In this document: one piece after another, positions 6,349 to 57,248 of the stretch | How the letters are laid out: each line of letters begins with the position of its first letter | How positions within the stretch are numbered: position 1 is the first letter of the stretch | Assembly (NCBI GenBank): GCA_016186175.1 | Contig: JACPMB010000015.1 | Location: 1,116-65,115, forward strand | Direction of reading: 5' to 3' | Length of the DNA: 64,000 bases | DNA from: Candidatus Peregrinibacteria bacterium | GTDB lineage: Bacteria; Patescibacteriota; Gracilibacteria; Peribacterales; Peribacteraceae | The notes under the pieces: model-generated | Seen by the model: only the letters and a program-made list of their open reading frames with translations | Told to the model about the DNA's origin: nothing | Database searches by the model: none | Translations under genes and position numbers: made by a program

Positions 6349-6419
6349 GCATGACGGGGCTCGAACCCGCGACCTTCGCCTTGGCAAGGCGACGCTCTAG
6401 CCAACTGAGCTACATGCGC
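6343..6419 (-). tRNA. tRNA-Gly (anticodon GCC), CCA encoded
   Basis: Reverse complement GCGCATGTAGCTCAGTTGGCTAGAGCGTCGCCTTGCCAAGGCGAAGGTCGCGGGTTCGAGCCCCGTCATGCGCTCCA, with anticodon loop TTGCCAA. Confidence 0.9.
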
Positions 6420-6669
6420 GTATCAGATGAACGAGGGAAGGATCGGCGCTCATGCTGCGCGAAGTTGCCAACTGCCTGCCCGCCGTAGCTCTGAGCGTAG
6501 CGAAGAGCGTAGGCGGGAGCTACATGCGCGTATCAGATGAACGAGGGAAGGATCGGCGCTCATGCTGCGCGAAGTTGCCAACTGCCTGCCCGCCGTAGCT
6601 CTGAGCGTAGCGAAGGAAGAGCGTAGGCGGGAGCTACATGCGCGTATCAGATGAACGAGGGAAGGATCG
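6407..6669. repeat. Tandem repeat, 110/114-bp unit, ~2.35 copies, each unit containing the first 13 nt of tRNA-Gly(GCC)
   Basis: Units start at 6407, 6517 and 6631 with gagctacatgcgcgtatcagatgaacgagggaaggatcg. Unit 2 carries a 4-nt insertion. Each full unit holds one GAGCGTAGCGA-loop hairpin. Confidence 0.9.
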
Positions 6670-7955: not shown

Positions 7956-8115
7956 GGCAGTTCGCCTCGCTTGGAAAACAAGCTCGTGGTTTACCACCCT
8001 TCGACTCGCTTCGCTCGCCCAGGGTCATTCGCCTCGCGCCTCATAGAAAGTGGCCCGAGCCGCGAAGCGGCGAGGACCATGAGCGAGTACTGAGCGTAGC
8101 GAAGTGCGAGTCGAA

Positions 8116-8190
8116 TGGTGCTCCCGACAGGAATCGAACCTGTATCTCCGGCTTCGGAGGCCGGCGGTCTATCCGTTGACCTACGGGAGC
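8116..8190 (-). tRNA. tRNA-Arg (anticodon CCG), CCA encoded
   Basis: Reverse complement GCTCCCGTAGGTCAACGGATAGACCGCCGGCCTCCGAAGCCGGAGATACAGGTTCGATTCCTGTCGGGAGCACCA, with anticodon loop CTCCGAA. Confidence 0.9.
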
Positions 8191-15831: not shown

Positions 15832-16626
15832 TCAGAGATCGTTCTGATCGTCGAAATCTGGCACGCCGTTTGCGCTATTGATCGTCAATCGGACTTCCTT
15901 CCCGAGCTGTTCAGACATTTGCCGTGCAAGCTGCACGGTCCAGCGTTCAAGCATTTCGATAGGCCTTTTCTCGTTTTGCAATTCACGCAATCCTTCGATG
16001 AGGGCACGTTCTCCCTGCGTAGTTTCCGCCACTCGCTCTAGCGGAAGATGCCCTGTGATTACCCCCGTAGCGCGACCGCGACTCTCTCTATTCAGCCTTT
16101 CAAGAAGAGGAAACAGGACGAGTCCCACATCAGCAGGAACATGAGCCTGTTTTGTAAGCCGCGTGATTCTTTGGTTTTCCTCGATCTGACGTATCCGATC
16201 ATTATGCCCACCTGCCCTCCTCATGATGGCCTGGTATTTTTCATCCGGGTCCAGTGGGGTTTGTGCGACAGCGGCAACGAGCATTTTGCGAAACTCAACG
16301 AGGCGGCGCTTGTATTCCTGTGCGTTATCAAGAGTCAAACGGTGGTCGCTCATCATGTCGCCCATACCTACTGCGGCCAGGGAGCGGCGCGCAAATCGTT
16401 GCGTCCAGGAAGCCAATGCTCGCTGCGCGTTCTTCTCGAAGGTGTCCTGCTGTGAAATCTCTGCATCGACACGATGCAAGAGCATCCTCAATTCGTCGTC
16501 ATTGTGCTCGATACGGAGATTTGCATGGGTAATACGCATTTCATCCATTATCTCCCAGTAGTAGTCATAAAAGAGCGAATCAGCTCTCTTATCCGGTTCA
16601 TGGCTTGGCATTTTGGTGGTTTCCAT
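15832..16626 (-). CDS. Hypothetical protein (first gene of the 3-gene operon)
   Basis: 264-aa ORF, charged and helical. No family recognised. Confidence 0.55.
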   Translation of the reverse strand: METTKMPSHEPDKRADSLFYDYYWEIMDEMRITHANLRIEHNDDELRMLLHRVDAEISQQDTFEKNAQRALASWTQRFARRSLAAVGMGDMMSDHRLTLDNAQEYKRRLVEFRKMLVAAVAQTPLDPDEKYQAIMRRAGGHNDRIRQIEENQRITRLTKQAHVPADVGLVLFPLLERLNRESRGRATGVITGHLPLERVAETTQGERALIEGLRELQNEKRPIEMLERWTVQLARQMSEQLGKEVRLTINSANGVPDFDDQNDL

Positions 16627-50323: not shown

Positions 50324-50995
50324 TCAGAGTTTTTTCAGCGCCTCCTCAAACACTTTCGGCATCTCTGCCTCGATCGTGATTTCCTTCCCGGTAATAGGAT
50401 GCGGCAGCGATACCCTGAGAGCGTGCAGAAAGAATCGCCGGTATCCGGTATATTTGCTGAATTTCCGGTTAAATTTCTCGTCTCCGTAGAGCGCATCGAG
50501 AACCAGGGGATGATGAATCATCTGGAAATGACGTCGGATTTGATGGTGGCGGCCGGTCTCAATCTCCACTTCCACATATGTTGAACCTTCAAAACGAGCA
50601 AGAACGGCAAAGCGGGTCAGAGCATACACTTGTCCTGAGCGGAGCGAAGGATTGCCATCCCCCTTCGCCCGCGCGGGCAGCGGCATGTTTATTTCGCCGT
50701 GATTATCTTCAATCCTGCCGGCGACTATCGTCCTGTAGACCTTTTTCCAGCCACTGAATTTAGATTTAATCGCGCAGGCTAGGACTGTTTTGTTACGCGC
50801 GAACACTACCACTCCAGAAGTTTCGAAATCCAGGCGATTTAGCGGATGAATGCCAGGATATTCTTTTTTAAGGAAATCCAGCATCGGCAGCCTCTGTACG
50901 TTCCCCGCTCCCTTCACAACCAATTCGCCCGCCAGTTTGTTCACCGCAAGAATCGCGTCGTCGCAATGGAGAACGCGGTCGCGTGAGATCGGCAT
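50324..50995 (-). CDS. RluA-family pseudouridine synthase (no S4 domain)
   Basis: ..HPLNRLDFETSGVVVFARN.. (catalytic Asp motif), ..GRHHQIRRHF.. Confidence 0.85.
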   Translation of the reverse strand: MPISRDRVLHCDDAILAVNKLAGELVVKGAGNVQRLPMLDFLKKEYPGIHPLNRLDFETSGVVVFARNKTVLACAIKSKFSGWKKVYRTIVAGRIEDNHGEINMPLPARAKGDGNPSLRSGQVYALTRFAVLARFEGSTYVEVEIETGRHHQIRRHFQMIHHPLVLDALYGDEKFNRKFSKYTGYRRFFLHALRVSLPHPITGKEITIEAEMPKVFEEALKKL

Positions 50996-53173: not shown

Positions 53174-54850
53174 ATGGAACGATCCTGCACCAAGTGCGGC
53201 CAGACCTTCACCATCCACCCCGATGAACAGGAGTTCGTGAAGAAGATGGTCTTCACGTTCGGGGAGAAAACGATCGCTCTCCCGCTCCCTAAAGAGTGTC
53301 CTGACTGCCGGTTGAAAAACCGCACTTGCTACCGCAACGAGCAGTACCTCTACAAAGTCCGCTCGGCGTTCTCCGGCAAGGACATCGTTTCGATCATGAG
53401 CGAGAAGCCTGTGTGGGGGGAGCCGTATAAGATCTATGATCAGGATGAATGGCGCAGTAACGCGTGGGATCCATTGAGTTACGGGCGGGAGTTTGATGCT
53501 CAGCGTCCGTTCTTTGAGCAGTTCGCGCAACTGCAGAAGAGCGTGCCGCGCATGGCGCTGATCACGTTGGGAAATGAGAATTCCGGCTTCACGACGGGGA
53601 CGGGGTATTGCAAGAATTGCTACCTGATCAACTCCTCGGAGAATTGCGAGGATTGCTACTACGGCAAACTCCTGCAGAAGTGCAGCGACTCGATGGATTG
53701 CAGTTATCTCTATAATTCGCAGCTCTGCTACGAATGTTTCTCCGTTTACGATTCATATAACTGCCAGTGGCTCTCATTCAGCGCCAATTGCCGTGATTGC
53801 TTCTTTGCGAGCAATCTGACGGCCTGCAGCAACTGCTGCCTCTGCACCAATCTTAATCACAGAGAGTACTGTTTCATGAACAAGCCGATGAAGAAGGAGG
53901 AATACGACAAGCGTCTGAAGGAATTTCGCGGATATTTCGAGAGAACGGAACAAATGAAGGAGATTCGACGCAGAATGATGCAAACTATGCTGCGCAAGTA
54001 CGCCAACATCGTGAACTGTCAGGACTGCACCGGCGATTACCTGGAGAATTCGAAGCACTGCCTTGATTGCTACGACGTGAACGAGAGTCAGGACAGTCGC
54101 TATGTCACCGTCGGCGTGAATGTGAAGGACAATTACGACTGCAGCAACATGTATCTGAAGTCTGAACTCTGTTACATGACGCTCGGGACGATTGAAGTCT
54201 ACGGATCCGCCTACTGTTTGTTCGTGTTTCATTCGCAGCGGCTGCTCTTTTGCGACCATTGCTTCAACTGCAGTGATTGCTTCGGATGCGTGGGGCTCAC
54301 GCGAAAGAAGTTCTGCATCTTGAACAAGCAGTATTCAAAGGAAGAATACGAGGAGCTCGTTCCAAAAATCATCACGAATATGGAGAAGTTGGGTGAGTGG
54401 GGGCAGTATTTTCCTACAAAGTATTCTCCTTTCGGTTACAACGAATCCCTCGCTTCGGAGTACTTTCCGCTCTCGGAGAAAGAAGCGAAGGCGCAGGGTT
54501 TCCATTGGCGAGAGAAGGACGCGCGTGACTACAAGCCACAGACGACCGCACTCGCTGACCGGATTGATCAGACGACTGATTCAGTGACGAAGGAAATCCT
54601 CGCCTGTAAGCAATGCACCAAGAACTATCGTGTGATCCCGCAGGAACTCTCGTATTACCAGAAGCAGGTTCTGCCGGTTCCTCATAGATGCCCGGAATGC
54701 CGGCACGCAGATAGGCTGAAGCTGCGCAATCCGCGGAAACTCTGGCGGTGCAAGTGCGCGAATTGCGGGAAAGACATCAACACGACCTACGCTCCCGAGC
54801 GGCCGGAGAAAATTTTGTGCGAGGAGTGCTATTTGAAGGAGGTCTATTGA
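53174..54850 (+). CDS. Cys-rich repeat protein, paralog 2
   Basis: 558 aa. MERSCTKCGQTFTI..CPDCRLKNRTCYRNEQYLY.., ..CFNCSDCFGCVGLTRKKFCILNKQYSKEEYE.., ..LPVPHRCPECRHADRLKLRNPRKLWRCKCANCGK..YAPERPEKILCEECY.. Confidence 0.8.
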   Translation: MERSCTKCGQTFTIHPDEQEFVKKMVFTFGEKTIALPLPKECPDCRLKNRTCYRNEQYLYKVRSAFSGKDIVSIMSEKPVWGEPYKIYDQDEWRSNAWDPLSYGREFDAQRPFFEQFAQLQKSVPRMALITLGNENSGFTTGTGYCKNCYLINSSENCEDCYYGKLLQKCSDSMDCSYLYNSQLCYECFSVYDSYNCQWLSFSANCRDCFFASNLTACSNCCLCTNLNHREYCFMNKPMKKEEYDKRLKEFRGYFERTEQMKEIRRRMMQTMLRKYANIVNCQDCTGDYLENSKHCLDCYDVNESQDSRYVTVGVNVKDNYDCSNMYLKSELCYMTLGTIEVYGSAYCLFVFHSQRLLFCDHCFNCSDCFGCVGLTRKKFCILNKQYSKEEYEELVPKIITNMEKLGEWGQYFPTKYSPFGYNESLASEYFPLSEKEAKAQGFHWREKDARDYKPQTTALADRIDQTTDSVTKEILACKQCTKNYRVIPQELSYYQKQVLPVPHRCPECRHADRLKLRNPRKLWRCKCANCGKDINTTYAPERPEKILCEECYLKEVY

Positions 54851-54875
54851 GGAATGCACTTGTCATCCTTCGCTT
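54782..54875 (+). repeat. 94-nt near-identical segment shared by the 3' ends of paralogs 1 and 2 (copy 2)
   Basis: See 53071..53164. The first 28 nt (acgacctacgctcccgagcggccggaga) also recur at 57180..57207 in paralog 3. Confidence 0.9.
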
Positions 54876-54889
54876 CGCTCAGGATGACA
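54861..54889. repeat. Hairpin with conserved 11-nt loop (family member H1)
   Basis: Stem tgtcatcct / aggatgaca (9 bp). Loop tcgcttcgctc, the complement of GAGCGAAGCGA. Confidence 0.8.
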
Positions 54890-54905
54890 ACGCAAGTGTA
54901 TGTAT

Positions 54906-54928
54906 GGCCCTTCGCTCCGCTCAGGGCC
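54906..54928. repeat. Hairpin with conserved 11-nt loop (H2)
   Basis: Stem ggccct / agggcc (6 bp). Loop tcgctccgctc, the complement of GAGCGGAGCGA. Confidence 0.75.
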
Positions 54929-55349
54929 CCGGAGCCCATTCGGAAGCCTGGGCGGAGCGAAGGCTTTCCATATCCAAATCGCTTGTCATGCTGAGCCCTT
55001 CGCTCCAGCTCTGAACAAGCTCCGTCGAACCACAACCCCGAAAGAACTTACAATGTGTTTGATTCTGACATTCTGACAATTTCGGAATTTTTTCGTACTC
55101 CCCGTTAATCAATGCCTCTTTCTTTTCTCTTCTCCAACCTTTGAGAATTTTTTCCCATCGAATTGCTGCACGGACATCTCTGAACGATTCTGAATGGACA
55201 AGACTCACTGGACGACGCTTTAACGTATAGCAGTGTTCGTTTATTCCTCGTTGATGCTCTTCTACGCGTGCGATCACGTTATTGGTGATACCGGTGTAAT
55301 AGCTGCCATCAGCACATTGAAGAATGTATACGGTGTAGTCACGTCTCAT
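54921..55349 (-). CDS. GIY-YIG nuclease-family protein (UPF0213-like)
   Basis: MRRDYTVYILQCADGSYYTGITNNVIARVEEHQRG.. is the GIY..YxG..R..H core. The last ~50 codons read through hairpin repeats, so the C-terminal tail is probably repeat-derived. Confidence 0.75.
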   Translation of the reverse strand: MRRDYTVYILQCADGSYYTGITNNVIARVEEHQRGINEHCYTLKRRPVSLVHSESFRDVRAAIRWEKILKGWRREKKEALINGEYEKIPKLSECQNQTHCKFFRGCGSTELVQSWSEGLSMTSDLDMESLRSAQASEWAPGP

Positions 55350-55469
55350 GTATGCACCGTAAAACAACAGACTTTCCTTTGGGAACGTACATTTGGCATT
55401 TCATCTTTTTCAATTACAAGATTTACTCTAATACAAGCCAATTTTTGGCGTTCTATAGGTGCGTAGAAC

Positions 55470-55496
55470 GGGACCCTGAGCGGAGCGAAGGGTCCC
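55470..55496. repeat. Hairpin with conserved 11-nt loop (H5)
   Basis: Stem gggaccct / agggtccc (8 bp). Loop GAGCGGAGCGA. Confidence 0.8.
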
Positions 55497-55515
55497 CTAA
55501 AAAGAGGTTCTTTGT

Positions 55516-55538
55516 CATGCTGAGCGTAGCGAAGCATG
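55516..55538. repeat. Hairpin with conserved 11-nt loop (H6)
   Basis: Stem catgct / agcatg (6 bp). Loop GAGCGTAGCGA. A partial duplicate, gcgtagcgaagcat, follows. Confidence 0.75.
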
Positions 55539-55586
55539 GGCGTAGCGAAGCATCTCTCATATTCAGAATAACGTATACTGGCACGC

Positions 55587-57248
55587 ATGCCGACCTGCGC
55601 AGAGTGCATTCAATCGTTCGCGATCACCGATCGCGACCGCGCGTTCTACCGAAAAATGGACGTTCCTCCCCCGAAATCCTGTCCCGACTGCCGATTCATG
55701 CGCAGACTCGCGGAGCGCAACGCGAGAACGCTTTACAAAAGGAAGTGCGACCTTACCGGCAGGGAATTCATTTCGCCGTACCACCCGGATCGGCCGTTCC
55801 CTGTCTACCACCCCGACACATGGTGGGGCGACGGATGGGACGAGACGGCATACGGACGCAGCGCCGACTTCTCGCGTCCGTTCTTCGACCAACTCGGCGA
55901 ACTCCTGAATGAAGTTCCGCACCAGGGGCAGTTCGTCGTGCCGGGAACCATGCAGAACAGCGACTACGTGAACTGCGCTGGGTATCTGAAGGATTGCTAC
56001 CTGATCGCGGAAACCGACTACAACGAAAACTGTTACTACGGTAATCGTATCTTCTACAACAAGGCAATGGTTGACTGCAGCAACGTCTACGAGAACGAAC
56101 TCTGCTACGAGTGCATTGATTGCCGCAAGTCGTACGGGCTCAAGTTCTGTGAGGAGTGCGAAAACTGCAGCGGGAGCTTCTTCCTCAGTAACTGCATCGC
56201 CTGCCGCGACTGCATCAGCTGCATCAACCAGCGGCAGAAGCATCACATGATCATGAACCAGCAGCTGACTGAGGAGGAATACGAGAAACGGAAGGCCGCG
56301 CTGGAGCTGAACACATATGACGGCCTCCAGAAGATGCGGCGGGATGCCGACGAGTTCTTCCTAACCCAGCCGCACAAAGCCGTCCAGAATGAGCACAACG
56401 AGCGTTCGACGGGCAATCATCTCTATAATTCCAAGGATTGCGAAGACTGCTACGACTGCAAGGATGTGGAAGACTGCGTCCACTGCGCTCGAGTGTTCTC
56501 GGTGAAATCGTCCATGGATTACACGTCGTGGGGCGACCGGTCGGAGTTGATGTACCAGTGCGCGTCGAGCGGCGACCGGGCGTACAATCTCAAATTCTGC
56601 ACGACGTGCACCACCGGGAATAGCAACCTCGAGTACTGCGCTCGCTGCTCGGAATGTTCAGACTGTTTCGGCTGCGTAGGCATGCGGAAAAAGAAGCACT
56701 GCATCTTCAACAAGCAATATTCCAAAGAAGAGTACGCGAAACTCCGGGACCAATTGATTACGCGCATGAAACAATCAGGTGAATGGGGAGAATTTTTCCC
56801 AAAATCCCTCTGTCCGTTCGCGTACAACGAAACGATCGCCATGGAATATTTTCCGCTTGCGAAGGAAGAGGCTCTCAAACGCGGATACGCGTGGAGGGAT
56901 CCGGTGGATGATCCGCCGAATGTCCCCCGCACGATTTCCGCGGAGCAATTGCCGCAGACGATCGTCGAAGTTTCCGATGACGTCCTGAACTGGGCCGTGA
57001 CGTGCCCGGTCACCGGACGTCCATTCCGCATCATCAGACAGGAACTCGCTTTCTACCTGCAAATGGACCTGCCGCTCCCGCGCAAGCACCCCGATCAACG
57101 CCATGCCGAACGGATAGCGCGGCGCTCCGGCGTCCGGATGTACTCCCATGCATACGCGAAGTGTTCACGGGATATTCAAACGACCTACGCTCCCGAGCGG
57201 CCGGAGATCGTGTATTGCGAACCTTGTTATCTTAAAACAGTCTACTGA
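55587..57248 (+). CDS. Cys-rich repeat protein, paralog 3
   Basis: 553 aa, 38 Cys by my count. MPTCAECIQSFAIT..CPDCRFMRRLAERNARTLYKRKC.., ..CSECSDCFGCVGMRKKKHCIFNKQYSKEEYA.., ..GEWGEFFPKSLCPFAYNETIAMEYFPL.., ..LPLPRKHPDQRHAERIARR..YAPERPEIVYCEPCY.. Confidence 0.8.
   Translation: MPTCAECIQSFAITDRDRAFYRKMDVPPPKSCPDCRFMRRLAERNARTLYKRKCDLTGREFISPYHPDRPFPVYHPDTWWGDGWDETAYGRSADFSRPFFDQLGELLNEVPHQGQFVVPGTMQNSDYVNCAGYLKDCYLIAETDYNENCYYGNRIFYNKAMVDCSNVYENELCYECIDCRKSYGLKFCEECENCSGSFFLSNCIACRDCISCINQRQKHHMIMNQQLTEEEYEKRKAALELNTYDGLQKMRRDADEFFLTQPHKAVQNEHNERSTGNHLYNSKDCEDCYDCKDVEDCVHCARVFSVKSSMDYTSWGDRSELMYQCASSGDRAYNLKFCTTCTTGNSNLEYCARCSECSDCFGCVGMRKKKHCIFNKQYSKEEYAKLRDQLITRMKQSGEWGEFFPKSLCPFAYNETIAMEYFPLAKEEALKRGYAWRDPVDDPPNVPRTISAEQLPQTIVEVSDDVLNWAVTCPVTGRPFRIIRQELAFYLQMDLPLPRKHPDQRHAERIARRSGVRMYSHAYAKCSRDIQTTYAPERPEIVYCEPCYLKTVY

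Follow-up and report, generated by a model that had tools for sequence, protein, structure and literature searches.

What connects a small GIY-YIG nuclease gene with the hairpins that surround it? In a 64,000-nucleotide (nt) stretch of a Candidatus Peregrinibacteria genome, a member of the candidate phyla radiation (CPR), such a gene lies among hairpins that share a single loop sequence, GAGCGNAGCGA (contig JACPMB010000015.1, positions 1,116 to 65,115; this whole stretch is called the window hereafter). The initial annotation of this DNA, made from the letters alone, had proposed by analogy with repetitive extragenic palindromes (REPs) and their RAYT transposases that the protein recognises or mobilises the hairpins, and had taken this pairing to be uncharacterised. 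The latter does not hold: Chenal et al. (2025, PMC11893778) showed that Ssn proteins bind the repeats flanking their genes and cleave single-stranded DNA (ssDNA) beside them. The pairing of GIY-YIG nuclease and hairpin is already characterised, and what we describe here is a variant of it in a CPR host. We read the locus as a divergent Ssn/SRM-type module, i.e. a single-domain GIY-YIG nuclease gene that has inverted copies of its own hairpin repeat on either side, and assign this reading a probability of roughly 0.7.

In the published system the repeat NTS (CGTCATTCCCGCGMAVGCGGGAATCYRG) and its relatives (SRM) flank single-domain GIY-YIG genes in many phyla, the encoded proteins being ~94 amino acids (aa) long (SsnA, CDD cd10448; PMC11893778). 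Purified SsnA proteins bind the repeat as ssDNA only, and only one of its strands (Chenal et al., Nat Commun 2025, PMC11893778). Cleavage falls upstream of the repeat, at a distance of a few nucleotides, double-stranded DNA and RNA are left intact, and in Neisseria the activity of SsnA modulates natural transformation (PMC11893778). The same authors draw an insertion sequence (IS)-like NTS-ssnA-NTS layout as well as the analogy with REP/RAYT (PMC11893778). In the literature we found no later paper extending the Ssn/SRM system to CPR bacteria.

The module (Table 1) occupies the spacer between two paralogous Cys-rich genes. All four hairpins of the initial annotation (H1, H2, H5 and H6) are present as described, but their stems are not unrelated, as had been thought: H1 is homologous to H6 and H2 to H5, and together they form two inverted copies of a two-hairpin unit of ~70 bp. 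H2-H1 (on the minus strand) and H5-H6 align in register across ~70 nt. In either unit a hairpin with a CCCT stem and the loop GAGCGGAGCGA lies on the inside, and a spacer of ~20 nt separates it from the outer hairpin, whose stem is of the TTGTCATSCT type. The inner hairpins are joined by a 24-nt inverted repeat (96% complementary), and both pairs of homologues carry compensatory changes (C-G to G-C between H1 and H6, G-C to A-T between H2 and H5). The flanks thus give the gene a frame of terminal inverted repeats, both being copies of a single two-hairpin unit in opposite orientation. H1 folds as DNA with a free energy (dG) of -9.6 kcal/mol (z -5.1). H2 overlaps the stop codon of the GIY-YIG open reading frame (ORF). 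Two weaker relatives had also been reported, at 54944-54966 and 54981-55020; the first is a real hairpin, but the second is only a degenerate fragment.

Chance is excluded as the origin of this abundance of hairpins and cores. The 11-mer GAGCGNAGCGA occurs nine times in the window against 0.45 expected from dinucleotide-preserving shuffles, a ~20-fold excess that none of 100 shuffles attains; four of the nine form the loops of perfect hairpins, all located within 700 bp. If one mismatch is allowed the contrast is smaller (20 matches, of which 9 exact, against 11 expected), and isolated near-matches, such as the loop-like core that had been noted at positions 65-75 inside metG, are at about this chance level and carry no weight. 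Across the genome (904 kb in 48 contigs, a usual size for CPR bacteria) there are 36 exact copies of GAGCGNAGCGA, and generic hairpins with a stem of at least 5 bp and a loop of the form GAG-N4-7-CGA number 22 against 2.95 in dinucleotide shuffles.

The pair that closes GAGCGNAGCGA is T-A without exception, and in most copies a C-G pair follows it on the outer side, so that the constant core amounts to the 13-nt TGAGCGNAGCGAA. With DNA parameters all six hairpins tested adopt one common fold, in which a 2x2 internal loop (G·A, A·G) sits on the stem and is topped by a G-C and a C-G pair and finally by a G-N-A triloop. The 11-nt 'loop' is thereby predicted to be structured, with two sheared-type G·A mismatches, two pairs and a GNA triloop. 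Its centre, GCGNAGC, is invariant in every copy of the family and only N varies. The same heptamer is known from the work of Hirao and colleagues as an 'extraordinarily stable mini-hairpin DNA', with N free and two G-C pairs able to close a GNA triloop (PMC13037366); both pairs are predicted in the hairpins folded here, and N is the sole variable position of their core because the mini-hairpin tolerates any nucleotide there. While the constant centre of each copy equals d(GCGNAGC) exactly, it is set here between tandem G·A mismatches atop a genomic stem, and its biological role in this setting is putative.

The repeat as a whole is described by an alignment of 35 distinct copies, drawn from this genome and from five congeners. 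Its consensus reads nnTGTCATCC-TGAGCGnAGCGAA-GGAT, written for the genus also as TGTCATCC-TGAGCGNAGCGAA-GGAT. The three pairs beyond the invariant T-A are formed in 100%, 91% and 100% of the copies and show 5, 13 and 10 double changes, respectively. The resulting covariation score is 0.39, against 0.145 in column shuffles (0 of 500 attain the observed value) and 0.05-0.16 in controls with slid partners; the covariation of the stem is real. More distant stem pairs are formed in just ~40-65% of the copies, so that in most of them TGTCAT lies unpaired, as a 5' flank outside the stem. From the alignment, then, the repeat is composed of an oriented TGTCAT 5' flank, a covarying stem of 3-4 bp and a constant top T-GAGCGNAGCGA-A. 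The earlier picture of a conserved loop on freely varying stems was too strong: the loop centre varies between genomes, the 'loop' is predicted to be structured, and part of the supposed 5' stem is in fact the TGTCAT flank, conserved and for the most part unpaired, with a counterpart in NTS.

The nuclease itself is a small protein. PF01541 (E 5.5e-14; residues 11-83 of the 148-aa ORF) is the sole domain detected, and a search of NCBIfam gave no match. The conserved part covers approximately residues 1-97, whereas positions 54924-55058 encode a non-conserved tail: homologues stop at ~100-109 aa, and the final ~40 aa of the window ORF are read-through into degenerate hairpins. The earlier remark that the ORF reads through several hairpins is accurate for the degenerate ones in this C-terminal extension, but for those only. 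A parallel to this read-through is seen in another CPR genome (G263, locus L178), where an Ssn-type ORF opens with about ten tandem CHPEQL repeats that are translated halves of a hairpin repeat. Y8, Y18, G20, R28, H32 and E66 are invariant in an alignment with Ssn-type and UPF0213 proteins, and the catalytic Tyr, Tyr, Arg, His and Glu are retained in the window protein.

Membership of the published clade is defined by a blastp match to N. meningitidis SsnA with an E-value below 1e-10 and a coverage of at least 75% (PMC11893778). As Ssn reference set we used proteobacterial homologues flanked by exact NTS or SRM matches. Among beta-proteobacterial homologues, one with NTS flanks shares 38% identity with the window protein (E 9e-12), and an Ssn-type protein from a CPR bacterium shares 45% (E 1e-21); the N. 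lactamica and N. mucosa genomes that were searched yielded only a YhbQ-like gene without NTS flanks, plus uvrC. In a tree of 48 sequences, a split with 96/91 support parts all UPF0213-type proteins from the half that holds the window protein, its CPR siblings and the tight Ssn-type clade (98/92). UPF0213/YhbQ-type proteins resemble the window protein in size and fold and provide its best sequence matches among solved structures, but they differ by this split and by the lack of flanking hairpins in CPR bacteria, as shown below.

A homologue of the window protein (E up to 1e-8) is present in 218 of 401 genomes sampled across the phylum. Flanking hairpins (up to 300 bp from the gene) were sought at the 29 best homologous loci in other CPR families. 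The exact GAGCGNAGCGA is absent beside these homologues save for two stem-less, chance-like cores at one locus (L176), and consequently the search was broadened to the class of GAG…CGA hairpins (loop GAG-N4-7-CGA). These are found near 7 of 10 window-type genes and 2 of 3 Ssn-type genes, against none of 16 UPF0213-type genes; for the first two types combined (9/13 versus 0/16) the difference is significant (Fisher p = 7e-5). Loop centres vary among the genomes (GAGCCTGCCGA, GAGCCTGTCGA, GAGCTTGTCGA, GAGTTTGTCGA, GAGCGTAGCCGA and GAGCAAAGCGA), and the loop is constant within this genus only. Across genomes the conserved elements are GAG…CGA, equivalent to both G·A mismatches plus one G-C pair, and a (GTCAT)YCT…AGR frame. 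Within the genus, the closest homologues (66% and 60% identical) are likewise flanked by hairpins. The proposal that the GIY-YIG protein recognises or mobilises the hairpins thus finds comparative backing, in this association and in the terminal inverted repeats, of a kind that does not distinguish between binding, cleavage and mobilisation.

The likeness to the Ssn system extends over gene, layout and repeat. The protein is, as in that system, a single GIY-YIG domain (~95 aa) within at most ~150 aa, with its catalytic residues intact; the gene is flanked by hairpins on both sides in an IS-like repeat-gene-repeat layout, and repeats are also dispersed without a gene. Both repeats have an oriented 5' GTCAT flank (CGTCAT in NTS, TGTCAT here), a pyrimidine-rich 5' arm with a purine-rich 3' arm, and a top that holds a GCGN(N)AGC mini-hairpin; the whole NTS reads CGTCATTCCCGCGMAVGCGGGAATC. 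There are differences as well. In place of the CCGCGMAVGCGG of NTS, the hairpins here have the top T-GAGCGNAGCGA-A with its tandem G·A mismatches, their stem is variable as well as short, there are two hairpins per flank, the window protein stands beside and not within the tight NTS-flanked clade, and the host is a CPR bacterium with a genome of ~1 Mb.

Several observations weigh against an Ssn/SRM-type module. The published SRM pattern, HGTCWYN(0-2)YYVSBRHN(0-5)WNVSBRGN(0-2)RNCYNB, which does match the canonical NTS sequence used as a control, has no match in 54800-55620 and shows no excess genome-wide (6 matches against 4-15 in block shuffles). In the tree the window protein falls outside the 98/92 clade of NTS-flanked proteins, and among solved structures it is matched best by BH0048 (PDB 1zg2) and EF2693 (PDB 1ywl), both of them UPF0213 proteins, at E 1.7e-14. 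Some homologues have no detectable hairpin of the GAG…CGA form. Finally, the genome encodes five small GIY-YIG proteins in addition to UvrC, and the four other small genes could equally be the partner of the hairpins. Taking both sides together, the locus probably works like an Ssn/SRM pair and is probably related to it; its membership of the clade is putative, and its repeat lies outside the SRM pattern. The four other small GIY-YIG genes (two UPF0213-like, two SLX1-like; C45:56786-58543 and C43:5284-5493) adjoin tRNA genes, and lie amid a different, G+C-rich hairpin family (…CGTAAA…GCTGCGC…).

By analogy with the biochemistry of Ssn, the protein would bind the folded repeat in single-stranded DNA only, such as may arise in the course of replication and repair or when transforming DNA is taken up. 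It would read the TGTCAT flank together with the structured top, and would nick the bound strand a few nucleotides 5' of the repeat; the candidate ssDNA target is TGTCATCCTGAGCGAAGCGAAGGATGACA or its complement. The outcome might be that incoming ssDNA is restricted or processed, as happens in Neisseria, or else that the repeats and the gene spread as a selfish element.

Comparison with congeners bears on the question of mobility. In one of them (G413) the orthologous Cys-rich genes (75-76% DNA identity) are 178 nt apart without a GIY-YIG gene between them, against 722 nt here. An insertion targeted at start codons is not seen at this locus: homology with the downstream gene of the congener starts 14 nt upstream of its ATG. 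Another congener (G416) has a gene-less solo copy of the H5-H6 unit that is 85% identical. Furthermore, lepA of the present genome (C1:42049-44292, locus L191) carries an in-frame insert of 48 nt with a family hairpin (loop TCGCTCCGCTC) in a surface-loop region of LepA, whereas lepA is uninterrupted in eight relatives (RMEWKG|VELNLIDTPGH); in a further congener (G409, L192) 24 nt are inserted at this position, and they combine the CCCT stem with the other loop, TCGGCAGGCTC. These comparisons show that hairpins and module come and go between congeners, whichever enzyme moves them. The idea that the stems arise as inverted target duplications was considered as well, but filled and empty lepA sites give it no support. 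In a more distant relative (L201) the lepA site holds an insert as well, which is of low complexity and unrelated.

It might be argued that the module is an autonomous transposon whose sole protein, a GIY-YIG ssDNA nuclease of ~95 aa, also mobilises the gene-less hairpins. This would explain the empty orthologous site, the in-frame lepA insert with its second loop variant, and the presence of 4-59 copies per genome (see below), yet we regard it as unlikely. Such a transposon would rely on a chemistry not found in the recognised transposase classes.

The dispersed copies invite a different explanation. The 13-nt core TGAGCGNAGCGAA occurs 15 times in this genome and is present in all ten genomes of the genus (this one included), with 4-59 copies each against 0-1 for a control pattern, and the copies are often closely paired. 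Homologues of the window protein are also present in 10 of 10 genus genomes. One could suppose that the hairpins are an independent family of spacer repeats resembling REPs or miniature inverted-repeat transposable elements, mobilised by other means, and that the GIY-YIG gene is a separate selfish gene in the same permissive spacer. In keeping with this, most copies in the genus are gene-less, some sit in tRNA trailers, rRNA flanks and even lepA, and the copy number (4-59) does not follow how many window-type genes each of the 10 congeners has. On the other side, the gene is framed by inverted copies of one two-hairpin unit, the same kind of hairpin flanks homologous genes in distant CPR genomes with differing loop centres, which chance co-location fails to predict, and the published biochemistry of related Ssn proteins points the opposite way. 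We consider such independence improbable.

The tRNA and rRNA copies raise the possibility that the hairpins are mainly signals for processing, stability or termination at the RNA level, their presence near the GIY-YIG gene being secondary; this would be compatible with an Ssn/SRM-type module, but as the main role of the hairpins we think it a little less probable again. Each end of the 16S rRNA gene is abutted by a family hairpin (C14:14732-14746 and 16548-16568; locus L246), the two being oppositely oriented; with 10/11 complementarity between their cores, they might pair in the precursor. Another copy takes the place of the variable hairpin in a conserved tRNA 3' trailer. On the other hand, none of the four module hairpins is called as an intrinsic terminator: a scan of 54700-55700 gave no hairpin with a terminator-like T-run, the sole terminator-like site (55437-55449) lying outside the hairpins, and no promoter-like site was called in the same region. 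The hairpins occur in both orientations relative to neighbouring genes and match no Rfam family (over the whole window Rfam finds tRNAs only), while their constant top is the DNA mini-hairpin GCGNAGC. The characterised Ssn proteins, moreover, are inactive on RNA (PMC11893778).

As to the REP/RAYT and IS200/IS605 systems, the resemblance lies in short extragenic palindromes recognised as ssDNA hairpins by a small nuclease (putatively so here), in a nuclease gene flanked by palindromes and in copies that cluster pairwise; the difference lies in the enzyme, which is of HUH type with a covalent tyrosine intermediate in those systems, as against a GIY-YIG protein of another fold and with hydrolytic chemistry. 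The view in which the hairpins would be REPs moved by a Y1 (HUH) transposase of this kind is very improbable: the genome does have one Y1_Tnp match (PF01797, E 1.8e-17, C26:26881-27213), but it is unlinked to the hairpins, contig C26 carrying none of this family, the consensus has a TGTCAT 5' flank instead of the GTAG-type head typical of RAYT-linked REPs, and the association across genomes is with GIY-YIG genes. The Y1_Tnp match sits in an open frame of 767 aa, which is unusually long for an IS200-type or RAYT transposase.

Returning to the Ssn/SRM-type module, the locus would extend the principle of an Ssn nuclease with its hairpin repeat to CPR bacteria. Given that the repeat here is missed by the published SRM pattern, surveys based on this pattern undercount such systems. 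As a candidate recognition element the module offers a short, defined combination of TGTCAT with a stem of 4 bp and a GCGNAGC mini-hairpin flanked by G·A, and if the enzyme cuts like its relatives it would add a new specificity to the ssDNA-cutting toolbox. With clean filled and empty sites among congeners, one of them in an essential gene, the genus is well suited for testing the mobility of the module, a question that was open in 2025.

Table 1. Features of the GIY-YIG module and further copies of the hairpin family (window positions).
Feature	Sequence	Position	Strand	Basis or remark
Whole module (two-hairpin unit, GIY-YIG gene, inverted two-hairpin unit)		54858..55553	.	inverted-repeat alignment
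H1, outer hairpin, left unit	TTGTCATCCT-GAGCGAAGCGA-AGGATGACAA (minus strand)	54860..54890	-	10-bp stem; homologous to H6
H2, inner hairpin, left unit	GGCCCT-GAGCGGAGCGA-AGGGCC	54906..54928	-	6-bp stem
GIY-YIG nuclease gene		54921..55349 from ATG (142 aa); to 55367 from upstream TTG (148 aa)	-	PF01541
Extra hairpin, one-mismatch core	AGCCT-GGGCGGAGCGA-AGGCT	54945..54965	+	5-bp stem; within C-terminal extension of the ORF
Degenerate hairpin remnant	TTGTCATGCTGAGC joined to CCTTCGCTCC	54983..55010	+	within ORF extension; 100% identity to 5' half of H6
H5, inner hairpin, right unit	GGGACCCT-GAGCGGAGCGA-AGGGTCCC	55470..55496	+	8-bp stem
H6, outer hairpin, right unit	TTGT CATGCT-GAGCGTAGCGA-AGCATG	55512..55538	+	6-bp stem
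Partial tandem duplication of 3' half of H6	GGGCGTAGCGAAGCAT	55538..55553	+	repeat alignment
Solo gene-less copy	TTGTCCT-GAGCGGAGCGA-AGGA	50630..50651	+	exact core
Extended-stem copy	CCCGCC..GCTCT-core-AGAGC..GGCGGG	6477..6519	+	dG -12 kcal/mol, z -3.2 (DNA fold)
Second extended-stem copy, in tandem repeat		~6587-6631		
Core in hairpin slot of conserved tRNA-Arg(CCG) 3' trailer		8092..8102	+	exact core
Further core in a tRNA 3' trailer		8006-8016	-	exact core

Of the copies outside the module, the two with extended stems that had been noted in a tandem repeat are real. They lie in a 110-bp repeat (6407-6640, ~2.2 units) upstream of tRNA-Gly(GCC), which duplicates the first 13 nt of the tRNA together with the long family hairpin. 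The loop-like cores reported near 8090 are exact as well, but their own stems are weak. The trailer in which they occur is more widespread: approximately 12 of the 36 tRNA genes of the genome (including window positions 8092-8118) share a 3' trailer of the form CCA-TTCGACTCG-[variable hairpin]-CTCGCTCATGGTCCTCG. Downstream of C46:45917 this trailer is found in tandem copies ending in CGCTCACCA, which mimics a tRNA 3' end, and a 23-bp array is seen at C10:104-260. A core within the gene for ribosomal protein L4 (C19:15902) was set aside as a coding coincidence, since it encodes the conserved GSLRSP motif.

A few further observations concern the surroundings. The genes that flank the module (53174-54850 and 55587-57248) encode cysteine-rich proteins of ~560 aa with many CxxC pairs; the family shows a weak zf_Tbcl_2 match at the C-terminus, occurs in tandem arrays and reaches up to 20 matches per genome in the genus. 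The Rfam match of the 16S rRNA gene (C14:14744-16541) spans 1798 nt against a model of 1533 positions, so that the gene carries insertions. Among the GIY-YIG matches in other genomes, those of a genome labelled Candidatus Peribacteria (G002; L129, L131, L134, L136 and L137) each contain 2-4 in-frame TGA codons, which suggests that TGA is read there as a sense codon.

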